DNA of 64,000 nucleotides from a virus, in the IMG/VR virus record IMGVR_UViG_3300033143_005857, positions 12,387 through 76,386 of that record; one strand, given 5' to 3'. Shown here piece by piece: positions 37,133 to 64,000 of this stretch (within the stretch, counting starts at the first letter, position 1; each line of letters opens with the position of its first letter). A program made the translations under genes and the position numbers. The notes under the pieces were generated by a model. It was given only the letters and a program-made list of their open reading frames with translations. It had not been told where the DNA came from and searched no databases.

Positions 37133-37171
37133 CGTTTACGTAAATGAAATATAACGTTTACGTAAACGTTA
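37129..37171. repeat. tandem ATAACGTTTACGTAAA with a 20-bp perfect palindrome
   Basis: TAACGTTTACGTAAACGTTA at 37152-37171, between convergent genes. Confidence 0.7.
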
Positions 37172-54653: not shown

Positions 54654-55109
54654 ATGACAAGCGGTATTTCACAAAGAAATATAGATCTTCTTAACTGTTT
54701 GAATAATAAAGGAGATTTAACACGGTCTCAATTAATGGAGCATACTGAGTTATGCTGGACAACTGTTTTCGATAATGCTAAAACGTTGATAAATTTAAAA
54801 GTAATTAGAAAATATTCTAAATATACTGGGCTTATTGGAAGACAGCCAGTATTTTTTGCTATTAAAGATAAGACAAAAACTGTTATGGAGTTGGTTAATA
54901 TCGCAAACGAAATTAAACAAATGCAGAAAAAATTAAAGTTAAAGGATGAAACTATTGATGTATTAAGCATCCAATTAGCTGAAAAGCGGACTACAATATC
55001 TAAACAACAAATAGAAATGCAGCAAATGCAAAAACGGCTTGACATATTCAAGAGAGATACTCTAACTATAAATGCTGCTATGGAAGGGCTTAAAAATGGT
55101 GGGACGTGA
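54654..55109 (+). CDS. winged-helix plus coiled-coil protein
   Basis: LTR.QL...T.L..TTV...L...GR pattern. Confidence 0.55.
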   Translation: MTSGISQRNIDLLNCLNNKGDLTRSQLMEHTELCWTTVFDNAKTLINLKVIRKYSKYTGLIGRQPVFFAIKDKTKTVMELVNIANEIKQMQKKLKLKDETIDVLSIQLAEKRTTISKQQIEMQQMQKRLDIFKRDTLTINAAMEGLKNGGT

Positions 55110-55284
55110 TTACAAGCACATAGATATCGGTTTATTAACCGATATGGCTAAGTCTGGCTATGGAGAAACGACAGAACAGAAGATACTATTTGAAAAGTTG
55201 CATAATAGGTTAAAACAAGATTGGCAGACCGAAAAAAAACCCGAAATCACCGCTGAGACAGTGATCTCGGGAAGGTTGGTATAA
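55096..55284 (+). CDS. hypothetical protein
   Basis: Short ORF coupled to the previous gene. Confidence 0.4.
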   Translation: MVGRDYKHIDIGLLTDMAKSGYGETTEQKILFEKLHNRLKQDWQTEKKPEITAETVISGRLV

Positions 55285-55462
55285 GTCGTTTTAGATTCTT
55301 TATTTTTTTGTTTTTGTTATACAATTTTACAATAGGAATTAGTCGGTTGATTTCCGCACTACATTCTTCCACCAAATAACTATTTGCAGAGTTATGGTGT
55401 CGATGTAGTATTAACAAATAAATCTCCCAAAAGGGAGAAAGCATGAGTTCTACATTGTCCAT
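55247..55462 (-). CDS. hypothetical protein
   Basis: 71-aa ORF. Confidence 0.4.
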   Translation of the reverse strand: MDNVELMLSPFWEIYLLILHRHHNSANSYLVEECSAEINRLIPIVKLYNKNKKIKNLKRLIPTFPRSLSQR

Positions 55463-55512
55463 TAGGGTTCACTTATTCTATAATTTAAATAAAAAAGGGC
55501 TAATAAATCTGC

Positions 55513-55770
55513 CTAATCAATAATACTGTTTATTATCTTAATGTTCGCACGTTTGAGCCCTAATTCATCAATAACAACGTCAATCATTTCTACAAAGCTA
55601 AAAGGCGATTGCTTAAGCCATCTTGTATAAACGTCGTCCATCTTCGCCTTAATAATGCAAACGTCCATATCCGTTTCAACAAATGTCTCTAAATAACCGT
55701 CGTTTTCGTCGTTTTCGTCTGGGTTATCTAAACCATATTTCGTGATAAACCGTAATTTTAATGTCGCCAT
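55513..55770 (-). CDS. hypothetical protein
   Basis: 85-aa ORF. Confidence 0.5.
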   Translation of the reverse strand: MATLKLRFITKYGLDNPDENDENDGYLETFVETDMDVCIIKAKMDDVYTRWLKQSPFSFVEMIDVVIDELGLKRANIKIINSIID

Positions 55771-55771
55771 G

Positions 55772-56041
55772 TTAATCAGCCGTTTTTATTTCTTCCATAC
55801 AACTCTTTAGGTTATGTAATGAAAGCCTAAATTTGTTGTGGATATCGTATGGAATCGGAGTGTTTTCCGTGCTTTTTACAAATAGTTCATACATCTTAAT
55901 CATCGTGGCTTTTCTATCTAAGCCAGTTCCGTCGCAAAATGCACATGGATAGTCGTCGTGCGTTCCTTCTTCTAATCCAGTGCCGTTGCAAGCAGAACAC
56001 TCAATTTTATGAGAGTCTTTGCTCATTTCTGTTTTCCACAT
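55772..56041 (-). CDS. DnaJ-type zinc-finger small protein (cassette ORF)
   Basis: CSACNGTG...CAFCDGTG; ATG abuts repeat copy 1. Confidence 0.65.
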   Translation of the reverse strand: MWKTEMSKDSHKIECSACNGTGLEEGTHDDYPCAFCDGTGLDRKATMIKMYELFVKSTENTPIPYDIHNKFRLSLHNLKSCMEEIKTAD

Positions 56042-56128
56042 TGATTTAACACCTTCTAAGCATTACGTGCTTAGTTTACGTGATTGCACCGAAATGGTGC
56101 AACCATACCGTAAAAAAGGAAAAAAGTA

Positions 56129-56329
56129 TTACTGTTTTCCATAAATTTTGATGTTTTCTTGTTGATCTTTTTCGTAATAAATTGAAAACATTAAACTTGT
56201 TTGAAATGCCTTCATTTTGTCAGTCATAATAAGTCCGCTGTGCCAAGCAGCAGCAATCAAATTTCCAACGTGTTCTTTGATTTTGTCGTATGCGTCTGCT
56301 TTCTCTTTATCTGTTGTTAATCGTTGCAT
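56129..56329 (-). CDS. cassette ORF, hypothetical
   Basis: Fills the space between repeat copies 1 and 2. Confidence 0.7.
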   Translation of the reverse strand: MQRLTTDKEKADAYDKIKEHVGNLIAAAWHSGLIMTDKMKAFQTSLMFSIYYEKDQQENIKIYGKQ

Positions 56330-56419
56330 TTTTTACACCTTTTTAGCAGCATAACGTGCTGCATTTACGTCCAAATCAGTATCTCTGGTTTGAATACCGT
56401 AAAAAAGTTAAAAAAGTAG

Positions 56420-56662
56420 TTATTTGTTAAGTTTGTCTTCTATTTTGGTCATTGTATCAATTGGAAGTTCGCTAACATGCAGCAAACCAATCAATCGGTA
56501 AAAGAAACGTTGCATATTAGTAATTCGTGCAGTAATCTCTGCAACTTTCATCCCGTTAGGAGAGTTCATATAACATTCGGTCAGTGAACACAAATCTGTC
56601 ACGTCTTCTTGTGTTAGGCTTATTTTCACAGTTTTATCATGTGTTAAATGTTTGAATTTCAT
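56420..56662 (-). CDS. cassette ORF, hypothetical
   Basis: Start corrected to MKFKH after the repeat RBS. Confidence 0.7.
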   Translation of the reverse strand: MKFKHLTHDKTVKISLTQEDVTDLCSLTECYMNSPNGMKVAEITARITNMQRFFYRLIGLLHVSELPIDTMTKIEDKLNK

Positions 56663-56750
56663 AAATTTACACCAGTTTGGTGGCTGTCGTGCCACCATTT
56701 ACGTGATTGCACCGAAATGGTGCAACCATACCGTAAAAAGTAAAAAAGTA

Positions 56751-56957
56751 TTACTTTGTTAAAAATAACCCGTCCAATAAACCAACCAAATACCAATATG
56801 CTTCATTTGTATAAAGCGTTTTAGTAATTGCTGATCCAACCCTAAACTGCCACATTTTTTTATCTCCAGCGGTCCAAACGTCTTGCGTGTATACGTTTTT
56901 AAAACCTTTATCGATAAATTTTTGTAATAAATTTTGTATCATTTTTGTCGTTGTCAT
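56751..56957 (-). CDS. cassette ORF, hypothetical
   Basis: Own GGTGA RBS; third gene of a 3-gene cassette. Confidence 0.65.
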   Translation of the reverse strand: MTTTKMIQNLLQKFIDKGFKNVYTQDVWTAGDKKMWQFRVGSAITKTLYTNEAYWYLVGLLDGLFLTK

Positions 56958-56970
56958 GTTTTTTCACCAA

Positions 56971-57195
56971 CTATCTCTTTTCTAAAAAAAACTGTGTTAA
57001 TGCTACCGTAATTCCAAGCGTATAACCACGCTCAAATAACTTTTCAGCATAGTGATAAGCCCACTTTAGTGTCGAAGCATTGTAAAATGATGCTTCACAG
57101 CTTAAATTTGTGCCAACAACAATATATTTTTGCTGTTTGGTTGGTTTCTGAATCATAAACACCTTTTCGTTAATTTGCTTATCAGCCATGCTCAT
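56971..57195 (-). CDS. cassette ORF, hypothetical
   Basis: ATGA overlap with the upstream gene. Confidence 0.6.
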   Translation of the reverse strand: MSMADKQINEKVFMIQKPTKQQKYIVVGTNLSCEASFYNASTLKWAYHYAEKLFERGYTLGITVALTQFFLEKR

Positions 57196-57560
57196 AACCT
57201 TTTAAGCACTGATTGGTATTTTTCAACAAGTCCATTGTAAACCGCTGTTGCTTTTCTGTAATCTGCGTCTGCTTCCCTAATCAAAGCCTTGTAATATTTT
57301 TTAAAGCAGCTTTTACAGTAGCTTTCACCACCATCTACCACTTCAACATCGTCAATATCAACAATTGTTTTACAATCAAAGCATACAGCCCAATCGTCTG
57401 AATTTTTGTGCGATGGGCATACTTCAAAGCACTTTTCGTCTTTGCATTCGTATAGTTCAACGTCGTCGTCTGTTGGCAAACCGAGTTTTTTACGTGTATT
57501 AATACACGCTCGAAATCTGGTCTCTTCGCCACGTTTGTCATGTTCTTCCCATGTTCCCAT
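57192..57560 (-). CDS. cassette ORF, zinc-finger protein
   Basis: CFDC...YCKSC. Confidence 0.7.
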   Translation of the reverse strand: MGTWEEHDKRGEETRFRACINTRKKLGLPTDDDVELYECKDEKCFEVCPSHKNSDDWAVCFDCKTIVDIDDVEVVDGGESYCKSCFKKYYKALIREADADYRKATAVYNGLVEKYQSVLKRL

Positions 57561-57649
57561 AATTTTTCACCTATTTACTGGCGTCGTCGCAGCCAGTTTT
57601 ACGTGATGATTTGGAATTCAAACCATCATACCGTAAAAAGTAAAAAAAG

Positions 57650-58066
57650 TTAGCCATACATAACTTCGCCAAATAAGGCTAACTGCAAAAAGCAATCAGC
57701 GGTTTCAGCATCTGCATTATCACCAATTAAATTAAGTGCTTGGCGATGCATCCGCTTGCCGTCCTTAGTCCGCATTTTTAGTAAACGTTCCACACCACGT
57801 CGCACAGCAGCATAGTCAAGCGTGTATTCTGCACCTTCGCTGTCGTTTGGGTCTTGGTCTGTAATAATTAAACTTCCACCATTTAGCACAATATCGTGCA
57901 TAAATCGGTCGCTTTCGTGCTTTTTATTTTTACGCACTATGCTATACCAGTAATTACTGCCACCTTCCAAAGCAGAAGCAATTAAACTGCTAACTTTGTC
58001 GTATCCAATAACAATAGGCTGCATTATATCAAACACAAATGCTTCGGTTTTTTCCATTGTTCCCAT
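57650..58066 (-). CDS. cassette ORF, phage-type hypothetical protein
   Basis: ALEGGSNYW...DAETAD.FLQ.ALFGEV.YG. Confidence 0.7.
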   Translation of the reverse strand: MGTMEKTEAFVFDIMQPIVIGYDKVSSLIASALEGGSNYWYSIVRKNKKHESDRFMHDIVLNGGSLIITDQDPNDSEGAEYTLDYAAVRRGVERLLKMRTKDGKRMHRQALNLIGDNADAETADCFLQLALFGEVMYG

Positions 58067-58152
58067 GATTTAACACCTTCTAAGCATTACGTGCTTAGTT
58101 TACGTGATTGCACCGAAATGGTGCAACCATACCGTAAAAAAGGAAAAAAAAG

Positions 58153-58356
58153 TTATTTGCTTAAAAAATCATTAAGCAAAGCGTTATCGATCTTTTTATA
58201 CAAAAAGGTCTGTGCTGGGTCGTGCTGATTTCCATATTGCTCCAACATTGCAACCGCTTCTTCTGGGCTGTCCACGTATATCATGTGAACTCGCTTGCGA
58301 ACTCGGTTTTTAAACTTTAATAAATAAAGTTTTAATTTAACATCGTTTTTTCCCAT
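58153..58356 (-). CDS. cassette ORF, hypothetical
   Basis: Start corrected to MGKND. Confidence 0.65.
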   Translation of the reverse strand: MGKNDVKLKLYLLKFKNRVRKRVHMIYVDSPEEAVAMLEQYGNQHDPAQTFLYKKIDNALLNDFLSK

Positions 58357-58443
58357 AGTTTTACACCTTTTACAAGCCATACGTGCTTGTTTTACGTAAT
58401 TGTAGCGATATGCTGCAATTATACCGTAAAAAGTAAAAAAGTA

Positions 58444-58815
58444 TTACAAATTGTCGTTGTTTAGGTCTCTAACTGCTGTTTCTATCCAATTAATTGCTTG
58501 TTCTACAGTATCTTTCAAGTCTTCGCCAGATTTAACACCAATTTTAAGCAATACAACGGTTTCTTCTAATATTTTGGTCACGTGTATTTGTTTGGCTTTA
58601 TCGTCTGTTTTTGGCTGCAAAATCGTTAAGCATTCCAAGTCTTCACTACAATCCCAGCAAGATATTTGGTAATCCCACTCGCTCGCTGCAAATATTGGCG
58701 TCATTGCTGATTTTTCCATTTTTTTATCCTTAACACACAGTTTGCAGTAAACTGCACCATTTTCGTCAGTATAACCAACGATATCGGCTGCATTCCATAA
58801 GTTGCTTTTTCCCAT
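58444..58815 (-). CDS. cassette ORF, zinc-finger protein
   Basis: Start corrected to MGKSN; YCKLC...PIF...EWD...CWDC. Confidence 0.7.
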   Translation of the reverse strand: MGKSNLWNAADIVGYTDENGAVYCKLCVKDKKMEKSAMTPIFAASEWDYQISCWDCSEDLECLTILQPKTDDKAKQIHVTKILEETVVLLKIGVKSGEDLKDTVEQAINWIETAVRDLNNDNL

Positions 58816-58906
58816 GTTTGTTTTACACCTTTTTGGTGGCTGTCGTGCCACCATTTACGTGCTATAAGCGATTTGCTTGTAGCATACCGTAAAAAGTAAA
58901 AAAGTA

Positions 58907-59110
58907 TTACTGTGTTGCGAAAAATGTATGCAACTGGTTTAATAGGTCAAATGCAAAGCGAAGGGCAAACATCTTAGCGATATAAGCCATTAACTCCCTT
59001 AGTTCTCCAGTAAATACTGGTCTTGGGTTGCTATCGGCAATAAACAACTGATATCTTGTTGATTCACCAAAGTAAACGGTGATATTGTTGGTTTCTGCTA
59101 TTTTTTCCAT
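58907..59110 (-). CDS. cassette ORF, hypothetical
   Basis: Bounded by copies 7 and 8. Confidence 0.65.
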   Translation of the reverse strand: MEKIAETNNITVYFGESTRYQLFIADSNPRPVFTGELRELMAYIAKMFALRFAFDLLNQLHTFFATQ

Positions 59111-59197
59111 ATTTTATTACACCTTTTAGCAGCCACCGTGCTGCTATTTACGTAATTGCAGCGATATGCTGTAATTATACCGTAAAAAGTAAAAAAG

Positions 59198-59455
59198 TTA
59201 AACCATATTAATTTTAAGGCTGTATACGTTGTCTTCGTCGAAGTTATTAAGGTTTTCCGCTTCTTGCTCCATAAAATCCCATAATAAAGCAACGATTTTA
59301 GGCACTTCGGTCCACTGAAACTCGCAATCCAGCGTTAAAGTAATGTTCTTAGCAAATGTTAGCCCTAAGATACGCTTTCGGGCAAACTCGACGTTGGTAT
59401 ACCAAAAACTTTTGTCTTTGATACAAAATCCGATAAATTGGGTTAAGTTATCCAT
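59198..59455 (-). CDS. cassette ORF, hypothetical
   Basis: Start corrected to MDNLT. Confidence 0.65.
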   Translation of the reverse strand: MDNLTQFIGFCIKDKSFWYTNVEFARKRILGLTFAKNITLTLDCEFQWTEVPKIVALLWDFMEQEAENLNNFDEDNVYSLKINMV

Positions 59456-59545
59456 AGTTTTACACCTTTTTGGTGGCTGTCGTGCCACCATTTACGTGAT
59501 TGCACCGAAATGGTGCAACCATACCGTAAAAGTGTTAAAAAAGTA

Positions 59546-60079
59546 TTACTTTGTTGTGTTTTTTAACCACGTATTAACGTCTGTTAGGCTTTCCAGTATA
59601 AATTTAAGCGTTTTACTATGGTTTGCATGATTATACTTACGCTCTAAGCTTTTTTTAACAGTAGCAACCATGTCGTTTGTTATTTCTAATATTTCTACTA
59701 TTTCTGGCTTATTTATTGCTACAAAATTAAAACTTAGGTTGTCCCACTCTTTTCTGTAGTTTAAATTAACCAGTTTAGCATTTGCAAACAAATTGGTAAA
59801 TGCTACATAGTTTTCAAACGTATAACCGTCGTAATAATCCACGTCGATACAAACCCTTAACTCGTTTAGTGTTGGGTTAAAATCTATTTGCGATAACCCG
59901 CACATAAACCACTGTGTTTTATACAACTGTGCCAATTCGCCAAAATGCTGCATAATTTGGTCTTTATATTGCAGTAAATTGTGTCCGCTGTTGTAAACGT
60001 TTTTGCCGTCAACTTTCTCGCAAATTGCAGTGCTTCTTTGCAAGAAAGCATTAAACTCTGTTGTGTCTTGGTTTTCCAT
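59546..60079 (-). CDS. cassette ORF, hypothetical
   Basis: Bounded by copies 9 and 10. Confidence 0.7.
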   Translation of the reverse strand: MENQDTTEFNAFLQRSTAICEKVDGKNVYNSGHNLLQYKDQIMQHFGELAQLYKTQWFMCGLSQIDFNPTLNELRVCIDVDYYDGYTFENYVAFTNLFANAKLVNLNYRKEWDNLSFNFVAINKPEIVEILEITNDMVATVKKSLERKYNHANHSKTLKFILESLTDVNTWLKNTTK

Positions 60080-60165
60080 GTTATTTTACACCTTTTACAG
60101 CCATACGTGGCTGTATTACGTGCTAACAGCGTTGTGCTGCAAGCATACCGTAATAAAGTAAAAAA

Positions 60166-60477
60166 TTAATGGAATTTAACCATTACAGTAATGTCTTCGC
60201 CAATATAGCCACGATTTAGGCTAAATGTTAGGTTGTAAACTTCCGTGTCGCCATAGTGGGCTTTGATTTTGTTGGTTTCTGCTTCTTTAAGCAGCGGTCC
60301 GTGTTGGTGGTCACGTATGCTAAAATTGCGTAAAACAGCGTAAACCATAATATTGTTTGCACTTCTTAGGCTAAATTCATAGGAATGCACAGTAGCAAGC
60401 CCAGTTCCATGTTTCTCAACGAGTTTTTTAACTTCGTCGCAGCAAAATGTTTTAAACTCTTTTGTGTATATGTCCAT
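60166..60477 (-). CDS. cassette ORF, hypothetical
   Basis: Start corrected to MDIYT. Confidence 0.65.
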   Translation of the reverse strand: MDIYTKEFKTFCCDEVKKLVEKHGTGLATVHSYEFSLRSANNIMVYAVLRNFSIRDHQHGPLLKEAETNKIKAHYGDTEVYNLTFSLNRGYIGEDITVMVKFH

Positions 60478-60565
60478 GTTTGTTTGCACCTTGTTGCAGC
60501 ATACGTGCTGCATTTACGTGCTATAAGCGATTTGCTTGTAGCATACCGTAAAAGGTAAAAAAGTA

Positions 60566-60895
60566 TTAAATTAACCGCTTAACAAATAGCGGTGATATTT
60601 TGTAAATTATAAGTTTTCCAATTGATTCTTGCCTTAAATTAGCACATTTGTCGGTAAAGTTAAATCTGTAAAACTGTGTTGCTGCTTTACCAGTTAAAAG
60701 CAATGTATCGCCAGTATCCAACATTGTGTCGGCTGTTGGGCAATATGCCATTAAATCTTCCACATAAATTAAAATGCCAGTTGTTTTTAACGTCATTAAG
60801 CGTTGTGCTGCAAGCAAATGTAATGTTGCTGCACCAAATAGTTGTTCTTGGTCTAATCGCTTAATAACATCCTTTAATGTTGCTGTTTTTTGCAT
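60566..60895 (-). CDS. cassette ORF, hypothetical
   Basis: Bounded by copies 11 and 12. Confidence 0.65.
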   Translation of the reverse strand: MQKTATLKDVIKRLDQEQLFGAATLHLLAAQRLMTLKTTGILIYVEDLMAYCPTADTMLDTGDTLLLTGKAATQFYRFNFTDKCANLRQESIGKLIIYKISPLFVKRLI

Positions 60896-60985
60896 AATTT
60901 ACACCTTTTAGCAGCCAACGTGCTGCTATTTACGTGCTATAACCGATTTGGCTATAACATACCGTAAAAAGTGGTTAAAAAAGCA

Positions 60986-61150
60986 TTAACTATACAGAGC
61001 AATTGCTTGCTGCTGTGCGGTTTGAACCGCTTGGATTGGCTTGGTTGTAGGCTGTTGTTTACCAATTGCTTTAAACATGCTAACATAATGTATAACAGTG
61101 TGTTTAATTGGTAAATAAATGTTAAAATTAACTGTAATTGGTTTTTCCAT
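60986..61150 (-). CDS. cassette ORF, 54 aa (not in ORF track)
   Basis: MEKPITVNFNIYLPIKHTVIHYVSMFKAIGKQQPTTKPIQAVQTAQQQAIALYS; fills the space between copies 12 and 13. Confidence 0.6.
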   Translation of the reverse strand: MEKPITVNFNIYLPIKHTVIHYVSMFKAIGKQQPTTKPIQAVQTAQQQAIALYS

Positions 61151-61243
61151 GTTTGTTTACACCTTTTAGCAGCATTACGTGCTGCTATTTACGTATTGGG
61201 TGCTAAATGCAGCCCAATATACCGTAAAAAGTTAAAAAAGTTA

Positions 61244-61582
61244 TTAATTGCTGTTAAATTTGCCGTTGTAATAATAACGGGTTGTTGTTTTTGTGCCTTC
61301 TGCTAAGCCCTTTAAGTATTTTGGGTATAACCAACTGTTGCACGCACCAGCGGCACGTGCTTGGTAGCCAATAAGCACACCGTTTACATAAGTAAACCGT
61401 GCAGCAAAGTGTTGGGCTGCAATAAAACGTTCAAAATGCACCATGCTTGCAACACGTGCCTTTTCCGTGTGTTGTAGTTGTGCAGCAACGTAAATAAGCG
61501 TGCTCCGCAATTCTGCAACGTCGTTGTATTTTGTGGCATTTATAATTAATGCCGCTAAATCGCTGTTATTTAATATTTCCAT
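61244..61582 (-). CDS. cassette ORF, hypothetical
   Basis: Bounded by copies 13 and 14. Confidence 0.65.
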   Translation of the reverse strand: MEILNNSDLAALIINATKYNDVAELRSTLIYVAAQLQHTEKARVASMVHFERFIAAQHFAARFTYVNGVLIGYQARAAGACNSWLYPKYLKGLAEGTKTTTRYYYNGKFNSN

Positions 61583-61661
61583 GTTATTTTACACCTTTTA
61601 CAAGCCATACGTGCTTGTTTACGTGGTTGCAGCGTTGTGCTGCACCCATACCGTAAAAGTG

Positions 61662-61949
61662 TTAAAAAAATTGCTGTATAATTAGGTGGGCTGCTTGCTC
61701 ATAGTTATCCACCATTTCGTTGGCTGCACTGCTTAATGCAACAGTTTGGCTAATAAACGGTATTAGCGGGTGTTTTACAACGTGTTTATACAATGCAGCC
61801 AAGCAATAACCAACTTTGCCGCTTGTATAAAACTTTGCCAGCCTATTGTGCTGGTATTTGGGGTCGTCCGTGCATTCTAAGCAGTGGTTTACATAATTGC
61901 TTAGTAAACTGTTTGCTGCATTAATTTGGGTTATATTTAGTTTTTCCAT
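61662..61949 (-). CDS. cassette ORF, hypothetical
   Basis: Stop codon lies in the T-tract of copy 14. Confidence 0.65.
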   Translation of the reverse strand: MEKLNITQINAANSLLSNYVNHCLECTDDPKYQHNRLAKFYTSGKVGYCLAALYKHVVKHPLIPFISQTVALSSAANEMVDNYEQAAHLIIQQFF

Positions 61950-62027
61950 GTTATTTTACACCTTTTAGCAGCCAACGTGCTGCATTTACGTGCTAAACGC
62001 TAAATGCGGTTAGCATACCGTAAAAAG

Positions 62028-62369
62028 TTAAAAAATAATGTATTTTAAGCCACTAAAAGCCATGCTACACGTTGGTGTGCTAAGCGTTTGCGTGTTAAAG
62101 TTAATAGTAATTGCCACAAACGGCTTGCGTGCTGGGTAGTTAAGCACATCCACCACACTGTGAAAACCAGCACGTAAATGCTGTTTTTGGCTGCCAGTTA
62201 ATAGGTTTGCAGTAAACTGCTTTGCTTTAAGCACTGTGGTGGGTGTATATTGTAATTGCCGTAATTGGTTTACCACGTGCTTGTATAAGGCTTGTGCGTT
62301 GTTATGCACAAATGCACGCACAACACCGCTGTTGTTATAAATTTTTAATATTACTGGTTGTTTTTCCAT
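62028..62369 (-). CDS. cassette ORF, hypothetical (1 Asp, 1 Glu)
   Basis: Bounded by copies 15 and 16. Confidence 0.65.
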   Translation of the reverse strand: MEKQPVILKIYNNSGVVRAFVHNNAQALYKHVVNQLRQLQYTPTTVLKAKQFTANLLTGSQKQHLRAGFHSVVDVLNYPARKPFVAITINFNTQTLSTPTCSMAFSGLKYIIF

Positions 62370-62460
62370 GTTTGTTTACACCTTTTAGCAGCATTACGTG
62401 CTGCTATTTACGTATTGGGTGCTAAATGCAGCCCAATATACCGTAAAAGTGTTAAAAAAG

Positions 62461-62835
62461 TTAAACCATTTTAATTATTTGCCCAATAAATTGGTTAATT
62501 TGGTAATACAGCATGCTGCTTGCTGGGCTGTATAAGTGCATACTGTATAAATGCTGCACCAGTTTGCACGCTTGCCATACAGCAATAAGTTGCTGCTTGC
62601 TAAGCATAATTTTAGGGCTTGGTTTAAACGGGCTAATAAATGGTGTTAATTGCTGTAAAACGCTGTTAATTACCGCTATTTGCCCTACCGCTGTAAATAT
62701 TTGTTTGCCAACTAAATGGCTAATTAAACCGTTATTAACGTGGTGGAAACTATTATTGCCTTGTTTTACTGCTGTTTGCAACACGTTAATTGCACCAATT
62801 AAGTGCATTTTAGGTATTTGTAATGTATATTGCAT
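62461..62835 (-). CDS. cassette ORF, hypothetical (no Asp, Glu or Arg)
   Basis: Bounded by copies 16 and 17. Confidence 0.65.
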   Translation of the reverse strand: MQYTLQIPKMHLIGAINVLQTAVKQGNNSFHHVNNGLISHLVGKQIFTAVGQIAVINSVLQQLTPFISPFKPSPKIMLSKQQLIAVWQACKLVQHLYSMHLYSPASSMLYYQINQFIGQIIKMV

Positions 62836-63018
62836 GTTATTTTACACCTTTATGCTGCAGCGTGCAGCATTTACGTGCTAAACGCTAAATGCGGTTAGCA
62901 TACCGTAAATAAAAAAGTAAACGTTGTTTGCTGTATTTGCACACAGCAGCCCAGTAGGGCTGTATTACGTGGTTGCAGCGTTGTGCTGCACCCATACCGT
63001 AAAATAGTGTTAAAAAAG

Positions 63019-63318
63019 TTATAATACAGCAAATAACTGCTGTTTAAACTGTGCAAGCGTGCTGCACCATTTAGTGCCTACATAATTGCCTTTAATGCCA
63101 ATGCCACCACTATACAAATGTATGGCTGTTTGCCCAGCCTTACGGTGTTGGCTGCCATACTTTTTGTTATTGTGGTAAAAATCCACGCAAATGTTTGGGT
63201 TTAAACGCACCATTAAAGCAGTGCCGTTGCAGCGTGCAATATGCTGCACCTTAAGCGTTTTTACAACAAAAATATAAATTGTTTTTTGCTGTTGGGTTAG
63301 GTTTGTTAGTTTTACCAT
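63019..63318 (-). CDS. cassette ORF, hypothetical (1 Asp, no Glu)
   Basis: Bounded by copies 18 and 19. Confidence 0.65.
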   Translation of the reverse strand: MVKLTNLTQQQKTIYIFVVKTLKVQHIARCNGTALMVRLNPNICVDFYHNNKKYGSQHRKAGQTAIHLYSGGIGIKGNYVGTKWCSTLAQFKQQLFAVL

Positions 63319-63408
63319 GTTATTTTACACCTTTTACAAGCCATACGTGCTTGTTTACGTGGTTGCAGCGTTGTGCTGCACCCATACCGTAAAAGTGTTA
63401 AAAAAGGG

Positions 63409-63798
63409 TTAAAAATAGGTTGCTACATTAATTTTAACTGCTTGCGTTATTTGCTTGGCTGTGCTGCCTTGTGCCAATGCTAAGCAGTTAATAAACAGTT
63501 GTGGCAAATCTGCAACCACATTAAGCATACTGGTTGCTGGGTTGCTGGTTTGTGCTGCCATACTGTTGGCAAACTGCATAATTTGGTTTAATACAAATAC
63601 ATGCTGTGGTGGGGTTAATTTGGCTATTAATTGCACTGCCAAATTATAAATAATACTGCTGGTTTGTGGTGCTGGGCTTTTAGGGCTGCCACTATTTACG
63701 TTGCACCAGTTAATAAAGCTGTTTAACTGCACCCAATTGGTTTGTTTACCAACCCAATAAGCCAGTTTTATGTTATTTACTGTAATTGTTGTTTGCAT
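63409..63798 (-). CDS. cassette ORF, hypothetical (1 Asp, no Glu)
   Basis: Bounded by copies 19 and 20. Confidence 0.65.
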   Translation of the reverse strand: MQTTITVNNIKLAYWVGKQTNWVQLNSFINWCNVNSGSPKSPAPQTSSIIYNLAVQLIAKLTPPQHVFVLNQIMQFANSMAAQTSNPATSMLNVVADLPQLFINCLALAQGSTAKQITQAVKINVATYF

Positions 63799-64000
63799 TT
63801 TTTACACCTTTAACAGCCATACGTGGCTGTTGCACGTGGCTAAAACGCTGGGTTTTAACCATACCGCACGGTGTAATGCCGTAATAGCTGCCATACATGT
63901 TAAGTGCCTTTAACTATGCCGCACGGCTTAAATTACAAGCCGTTTGCTACTGCTAAATTGCCATGCTAAGTTTATTTATACAGCCGTTGCATGCAAATTA

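Follow-up and report, generated by a model that had tools for sequence, protein, structure and literature searches.

Promoter-early stem-loops (PeSLs) are short composite regulatory units that are repeated among the small, mostly ORFan early genes of a hyperplastic region in T4-type phages, among them RB49/phi1, PST and nt-1 (PMC2839356, PMC4122927). Crossovers were mapped experimentally at several positions inside the PeSL cassette (PMC2839356), lying between the Shine-Dalgarno sequence (SD) and the -10 element, in the loop, or beside the AT-rich part, with no dedicated recombinase involved (PMC2839356, PMC4122927), and this recombination yields gene swaps and mini-circles (PMC2839356; PMC4122927). 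Among archaeal viruses, the closest precedent by analogy for repeated units before early-middle genes is the set of intergenic repeats of HF2, which are proven promoters in an archaeal tailed virus (PMC8707807). Here we analyzed a 64,000-nt stretch of viral DNA (the window, numbered from its first base), which corresponds to bases 12387-76386 of the 76,386-bp IMG/VR virus record IMGVR_UViG_3300033143_005857. At 56050-63869 the window carries 20 copies of one intergenic unit, 19 of them full and one lacking an SD and an open reading frame (ORF). We consider it probable that the unit is a resident terminator and leader cassette, possibly also a promoter, whose copies exchange parts by homologous recombination or gene conversion.

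By analogy, PeSLs are the closest system to this array in behaviour. The array, too, consists of a conserved stem-loop unit, in 20 copies between 22 unrelated, mostly family-less ORFs, and combines a stem-loop with conserved blocks that reach up to the SD. Its sub-segment mosaic and its one solo unit, both described below, fit a PeSL-type recombination at scattered points. The differences lie in the build and in the record available. PeSLs contain a sigma-70 promoter and a hairpin terminator, whereas the unit described here has oligo-T tracts without a hairpin, a promoter that is only putative, two hairpins conserved in shape and free in sequence, and a host that is likely archaeal. Mini-circles and strain-to-strain swaps are documented for PeSLs, whereas here one genome is at hand. 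HF2 and the other haloferacalesviruses are archaeal tailed viruses of about 77 kb with terminal repeats (PMC8707807); our virus, which is probably archaeal, resembles them in this, in having conserved repeats of tens of base pairs before early-middle genes that are transcribed inwards from the genome end, and in using virus-specific sequence blocks for regulation. The HF2 class I and class II repeats are conserved in sequence, have a TATA box and a mapped start site, and occur in seven plus two copies (PMC8707807), whereas the array has 20 tandem units around single genes, with covarying hairpins and no canonical TATA; the two sets of repeats have no sequence similarity.

Anatomy of the repeated unit

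Read along the plus strand, the unit has the order CAT, spacer, CACCT, hairpin 1, TTTACGT, hairpin 2 (23-24 nt), ATACCGTAA, an A/T tract and a stop codon. All genes of the array lie on the minus strand, and on this coding strand the unit starts with the stop codon of the upstream gene (usually in TAATAC or TAAC), followed by tandem oligo-T (TTTTTTAC TTTTT, or TTTTTT-AC-TTTTT), ACGGTAT, hairpin 2, ACGTAAA, hairpin 1, AAAAGGTG as the SD, TAAAA, a few bases and the ATG of the next gene. About half of the 95 nt of the unit is conserved, in three blocks. The ATACCGTAA anchor occurs 42 times at ≤1 mismatch, against 14 occurrences expected, and the full pattern of the unit is found in this array only. 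The ATG of genes led by a unit is often followed by GAAAAA; many array ORFs between 58350 and 62370 start with M-E-K (ATG GAA AAA) or with ATG GG, and thus the conserved unit extends a few codons into the gene.

When each copy was folded, the inverted TTTACG and CGTAAA boxes formed an outer stem that encloses hairpin 2 and leaves three bases, GTA, unpaired as a bulge. The stem of hairpin 2 is 10 bp long and its loop 5 nt; two units have a hairpin 2 of 24 nt, the other 18 one of 23 nt. Hairpin 1, of 18-25 nt, has a perfect stem of 5-8 bp with ACG at the start of its loop, and stands 4-5 nt before the SD; its 16 distinct sequences all fold to perfect stems, with a mean z of -3.8. With the 20 units aligned by MAFFT, 95.3% of the cells of the outer stem and hairpin 2 were paired, and 11 of the 16 pairs were altered on both sides, showing that compensatory changes have kept the pairing. 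None of 500 shuffles reached as high a value, and slid partners were 27-39% paired.

The pairing of hairpin 2 is not perfect. Its non-Watson-Crick pairs comprise 10 G.U (as read on the minus, coding strand), 5 A.C and 7 other mismatches. Each of the 12 different stems of hairpin 2 (56082-63860) has one or two such pairs, at varying positions, and none is perfect; this imperfection may be selected, for example against a perfect long palindrome. Two known motifs considered for the GTA bulge, the K-turn and the bulge-helix-bulge, were rejected, as there are no tandem G.A pairs, the bulge is single, and 10-11 bp separate the bulge from the loop. A search of 55000-64000 against Rfam gave no family, with one sub-threshold match to CyaR that lies outside the units.

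Exchange between copies of the unit

The units can be described by the types of their hairpin 1 and hairpin 2 and by the filling of the T-tract, which varies (AGTA, AGTT, AGG, GTGTT and others), as does the spacer from the SD to the ATG. An earlier note on this DNA had reported that the two hairpin halves reassort between copies, and all the hairpin combinations it named are present in the array. The hairpin 1 sequence TGGTGGCTGTCGTGCCACCA (type C, TGGTGGC..) stands with hairpin 2 type a in units 3 (56670-56752, T-tract AGTA) and 9 (59463-59545, GTGTT), and with type b in unit 7 (58826-58908, AGTA). Type a also follows hairpin 1 type A (CTAAGCA..) in units 1 (56050-56129) and 5 (58074-58153), both with the T-tract AGG, and type b follows TGCAGCA.. 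(type B2) in unit 11 (60487-60567, GGTA). Similarly, ACAAGCC.. (type E) is joined to AATTG.. (type e) in unit 6 (58364-58445, AGTA) and to GGTTGCAGC.. (type h) in units 14 (61592-61672) and 19 (63328-63408), both with GTGTT. The non-adjacent pairs 1/5, 13/16 and 14/19 are identical over 84, 89 and 91 nt, respectively, and are flanked by unrelated ORFs; units 13 (61160-61243, AGTT) and 16 (62379-62462, GTGTT) share hairpin 1 type H and the 24-nt hairpin 2 type g, and then differ in the T-tract variant.

Two further cases came to light. Hairpin 2 type i occurs with differing hairpin 1 in units 15 (61959-62039; hairpin 1 type F, AGTT) and 17 (62845-62924; type I), and type h is found not only in units 14 and 19 but also in the SD-less copy (62930-63018, copy 18 of the earlier note), which has a degenerate hairpin 1 without the ACG loop and no ORF. 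This solo unit, some 50 nt upstream of unit 17, may be what remains after the deletion of a gene that stood between two units. The remaining units are unit 2 (56336-56418; types B and c, AGTT), unit 4 (57568-57652; D and d), which stands at the head of a three-gene operon, unit 8 (59120-59201; F and e', the latter being e with two changes, AGTA), unit 10 (60089-60169; G and f, with the core variant ATTACGT), unit 12 (60902-60983; F and b2, GTGGTT) and unit 20, the most upstream one (63805-63869; G' and j). The same type of hairpin 1 heads three different ORFs, and the same type of hairpin 2 follows four.

Identical hairpins of 19-23 nt cannot have arisen by chance, and the two halves assort independently, as had been proposed: the distances between units in hairpin 1 show no correlation with those in hairpin 2 (Mantel r=0.016, p=0.42). 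Some pairs of units that match fully in one hairpin differ by 45-65% in the other, in both directions. This pattern excludes duplication followed by divergence and makes exchange between the halves real. Because the 7-nt core is the only sequence shared between the halves, such an exchange must have taken place in or beside it.

An account without any exchange would have to invoke duplication and divergence at very uneven rates, palindrome-templated mutation, or assembly chimeras. Some features of the data are compatible with it. When the types of the two hairpins are joined in a bipartite graph, no cycle closes, and a four-gamete-type bound accordingly gives zero obligatory events; the hairpin 2 families (e/e'/h and b/b2/i/f) differ by point and compensatory changes; and the contig, assembled from a metagenome, contains repeats as long as 91 nt. 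However, no rate model fits full identity in one hairpin next to so large a difference in the other, misjoins at identical repeats create no new local sequence, and proteins of the array are on record from 2-3 contigs. We therefore regard an array without exchange as highly improbable.

The earlier note had gone further and placed the crossover at the TTTACG core, such that hairpin 1, the ribosome-binding site, the ORF, the T-tract and hairpin 2 would form one mobile unit. This part was not borne out. The T-tract variant, hairpin 2, hairpin 1 and the SD spacer assort nearly at random, with Mantel r values of -0.10 between T-tract and hairpin 2 and of 0.18 between hairpin 1 and SD spacer; hairpin 2 type a adjoins three T-tract variants, and hairpin 1 type C adjoins three spacers. 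For each junction, we counted the unit pairs that share a type at both of the two adjacent sub-segments and compared the count with a null. Across the TTTACGT core, between hairpin 2 and hairpin 1, 4 of 11 pairs shared both types against a null mean of 0.78 (P=0.007), whereas the counts were 3 of 11 against 1.44 (P=0.15) between T-tract and hairpin 2, and 3 of 11 against 1.30 (P=0.11) between hairpin 1 and SD spacer. Thus, the core is the only junction with significant residual linkage, and the T-tract is unlinked to hairpin 2, as is the SD spacer to hairpin 1, which takes apart the proposed mobile unit at its inner seams. Maximal identical tracts end in every zone of the unit. Together with the residual linkage at the core, this means that the core is not a preferred crossover; exchange has occurred in at least three zones, of which TTTACGT would, if anything, be the one broken least. 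Within this genome the breakpoints are scattered, an outcome that the earlier note itself had named as refuting, so the site-specific reading fails, and scattered breakpoints argue for ordinary homologous recombination or gene conversion.

A site-specific recombination of the integron kind deserves a closer look all the same, as the array resembles integron cassettes in several ways. In such a scheme the bulged hairpin 2 would be the folded site, strand exchange would occur at the core through an unrecognised viral or host enzyme, and hairpin 1, SD, ORF, T-tract and hairpin 2 would move as a cassette. As in integrons and their attC sites (PMC5027507, PMC3053210), the unrelated ORFs all point the same way, and between them stand imperfect palindromes of fixed size, in which conserved inverted boxes on the outside surround an unpaired element (of 3 nt here) and a variable paired centre. 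Also in favor of this scheme are the non-Watson-Crick pairs, from which no distinct hairpin 2 is free, the solo unit that lacks an ORF, and the differing combinations in which the halves are found. The likeness of hairpin 2 to attC is one of overall shape only. There is no integrase (IntI), no attI and no core-site consensus, and neither RYYYAAC...GTTRRRY boxes nor the extrahelical bases of attC were found; instead, the unit has mismatches at varying positions and one 3-nt bulge. The palindrome is unlinked to the neighbouring segment on the ORF side, each unit has its own SD and T-tract, and the element as a whole is a virus genome, probably an archaeal one. The evidence within this genome shows no fixed crossover: the proposed cassette is broken internally as often as at the core, which is the most linked junction.

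The search for an enzyme likewise spoke against such a scheme. No tyrosine recombinase, serine recombinase or Y1 HUH domain was found in the 76-kb genome, Phage_integrase (PF00589), Resolvase and Y1_Tnp being absent from its six frames, while positive controls worked, those of the PF00589 search in 14 of 14 genomes. One array ORF (57650-58066, 138 aa) belongs to phrog_2355, of unknown function, with 1,472 cluster representatives at E≤0.001. None of 80 retrieved viral phrog_2355 loci (of 425 tblastn-confirmed stretches) has the unit, the homologues being distant at ≤38% identity; the same unit pattern recovers 20 copies in the window. As weak evidence, these loci without the unit fit a resident control unit better than a travelling one. 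Taken together, these data make integron-like recombination improbable. Its variant, in which hairpin 2 would be the folded-DNA recombination site of an unrecognised enzyme (a family-less early protein or a host factor) and the extra breakpoints would reflect gene conversion laid over it, is about as improbable in our judgment; if true, such a site would be the first integron-like, structure-specific gene-cassette system in an archaeal virus.

The exchange we favor would be a homology-driven recombination or gene conversion between copies, which we infer could start in any conserved block. A heteroduplex between two units could span the whole unit because about half of it is conserved in the three blocks. 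A non-matching, self-complementary hairpin would loop out on its own strand and would then be repaired or segregated as a block; through this loop-out each hairpin would segregate as a block, giving sharp module edges without a site-specific enzyme. Where such exchanges fall on the conserved blocks next to start and stop codons, entire ORFs would be replaced, lost or gained. Template switching at the hairpins during replication would be an alternative route. A virus-encoded annealing protein and a branch-migration-type helicase are encoded nearby, consistent with homology-driven exchange.

Transcription signals and the role of the hairpins

Archaeal RNA polymerase terminates at oligo-T. Tandem tracts of at least five T follow 16 of the 20 array genes, compared with 16 of 81 other genes, and outside the array such tracts occur mostly where an intergenic gap, and not an adjoining gene, comes next. 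On the simplest reading, the tandem oligo-T would be an archaeal-type terminator of the upstream array gene. If each array gene had its own terminator, a start signal would be needed in each unit, and the TTTAC boxes in TTTTTTACTTTTTACGGTAT are the only candidates for it, because TTTAC also begins the TATA-like box of the late genes. If the spacing is the one usual in archaea, transcripts would start close to where hairpin 2 ends, or at ACGTAAA, which would make hairpin 2 a DNA spacer of fixed length and hairpin 1 a hairpin of the 5' leader before the SD. Scans for sigma-70 promoters and intrinsic terminators stayed at chance level, with matches that do not fall at the units, and a sigma-70 reading of the conserved blocks by eye was discarded for its wrong spacing.

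Outside the array, oligo-T tracts often lie directly before canonical TATA-like boxes (55463-55512 and other operon ends). For example, TTTTTTATTTAAATTATAG stands about 20 nt ahead of the ATG of 55247-55462. TATA-like boxes right before an ATG suggest leaderless or short-leader transcripts outside the array.

A number of points weigh against a terminator and leader cassette that recombines by homology. On the side of exchange, no actual gene swap at the unit has been seen for this virus, of which one genome was compared; the comparison of junctions has low power with 18-20 units; the sequence comes from one metagenomic assembly; and 7 nt, the length of the core, is very little for homologous recombination of the classical kind, which leaves room for template switching or a structure-specific enzyme. 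On the side of function, the unit has no canonical TATA box within it, and the wobble pairs favor no strand clearly, so that their mixed counts are not decisive between an action in RNA and one in DNA. Unit 20 has neither a T-tract nor TTTAC boxes, yet keeps both hairpins, and this makeup speaks against a promoter within the unit and for a role of the hairpins in RNA or another role.

In a different assignment, both hairpins would be RNA elements of long early transcripts that read through the T-tracts, serving as processing, stability or translation signals before the SD. The mixing of parts would follow from the same homology-driven process, and only the function of the unit would differ. 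In line with this, compensatory changes preserve pairing in both hairpins, hairpin 1 sits close before the SD, and G.U pairs on the coding strand are twice as many as A.C pairs (10 vs. 5). Unit 20 is again instructive: its outer stem, GUGCG/CGUGC, is paired only through G.U on the minus strand, and a canonical TATA-like TATAAATAAA lies about 110 nt upstream of it, so that both of its hairpins would be in RNA, in a 5' leader. Long, later processed transcripts have been reported for haloviruses (PMC8707807). Against this assignment, the tandem T-tracts lie directly upstream of hairpin 2 in 19 units, so that much of the transcription should stop before hairpin 2 is reached; five A.C and seven other mismatches leave no clean strand bias; the strictly fixed 23-nt hairpin 2 suggests a spacing constraint on DNA; and no Rfam family matched. 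An analogue would be the intercistronic hairpins in early mRNA of phage T7, which are processed by RNase III, an enzyme that to our knowledge is mostly absent from archaea. In T7 there are few such sites, and no terminator-like tracts accompany them, whereas transcription through the T-tracts of the array is only putative. We hold such a role in RNA to be possible but rather unlikely.

A further observation concerns the TTTAC word. Between convergent genes at 37135-37166, two copies of the palindrome TTTACGTAAA lie 22 bp apart. The outer stem of the units, TTTACG...CGTAAA, consists of this very word in split form, and the late promoter box has TTTAC in common with it. The palindrome may be a common recognition word of a viral DNA-binding protein.

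The virus and the genes of the array

The ends of the 76,386-bp record overlap by 114 bp. The record encodes an HK97-type major capsid protein, a tail sheath and a baseplate wedge, as well as a family B DNA polymerase, a Hel308/Hjm-like helicase, a Sak4-like annealing protein and a small subunit of replication factor C (RFC), the nearest named homologues of which are all archaeal. Its late genes have six identical copies of AAAATTTACATATAT, a BRE/TATA-like box. Because of the archaeal RFC homologues, the BRE/TATA-like late promoter and the tandem oligo-T after genes, we take it to be a tailed virus, an uncultured myovirus of about 76 kb, whose host is probably archaeal. An exact motif of the unit gave just 10 single matches in IMG/VR, which is the chance level, and no DNA of a relative. 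Likewise, searches with RFC and the major capsid protein, as single proteins or alignments, against IMG/VR, GTDB genomes and GenBank phages found no DNA of a relative, and a search of JGI metagenomes returned one 2.5-kb contig only, which ends ahead of any array. Matches at the protein level lie on related contigs of 63-78 kb.

The array genes are read inwards from the end of the contig. The units serve 22 small ORFs of 54-177 aa (55772-63798), including, besides the phrog_2355 member at 57650-58066, those at 55772-56041, 56129-56329, 56420-56662, 56751-56957, 56971-57195, 57192-57560, 58153-58356, 58444-58815, 58907-59110, 59198-59455, 59546-60079, 60166-60477, 60566-60895, 60986-61150, 61244-61582, 61662-61949, 62028-62369, 62461-62835, 63019-63318 and 63409-63798. 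No paralogy was detected among the 22 ORFs, which are mutually unrelated; no array ORF reached the cut-off in Pfam, and nearly all are without any family. For the largest one, a word-indexed search found itself as the sole homologue. On balance, we hold it likely that this part of the genome is the early ORFan region of the virus, in which a resident intergenic control cassette of about 95 nt stands before and after the genes.

Two of the proteins show recognizable patterns. The phrog_2355 member, which has no Pfam family, shows the conserved pattern EGGSNYWY...DAETGD..LQ..LFGE..YG, and its relatives occur in hundreds of IMG/VR contigs of 4-448 kb. The last array gene (55772-56041) encodes an 89-aa protein with two CxxCxGxG motifs, and matched, below threshold, the central zinc-finger domain of DnaJ, Anti-TRAP and a Q-like antiterminator PHROG.

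The array is also marked by a gradient of the dinucleotides GA and TC in 56000-64000, which runs on into the first ~2,000 bases of the record. Per successive kilobase of the plus strand, GA falls through 24, 16, 12, 20, 11, 5, 1 and 1, and TC falls from 85 to 2, where about 40-80 would be expected; in bases 1-2000 of the record, both are near zero. Unit 10 is the first unit free of GA and TC, and units 13-20 are free of them as well. The loops of hairpin 2 in these units are GTTGT or TAAAT instead of GAAAT, GATAT or GATTT. The ATGGAAA starts retain some of the few GA left in the purged zone.

The analogy to integrons, attractive but unsupported, is corrected by these data, and the junction-by-junction linkage test can be applied to other arrays of this sort. 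The inference on exchange draws on 20 units from one metagenomic assembly. It extends to a tailed virus, probably archaeal, the idea that regulatory cassettes serve as handles for recombination, which is known from T4-type phages. The build differs, in that oligo-T tracts are combined with two hairpins of conserved shape and free sequence. The array illustrates how a virus can hold about twenty unrelated early genes under one control design with fast gene turnover, and offers a compact system for asking whether archaeal early promoters and leaders depend on hairpins in DNA or in RNA.

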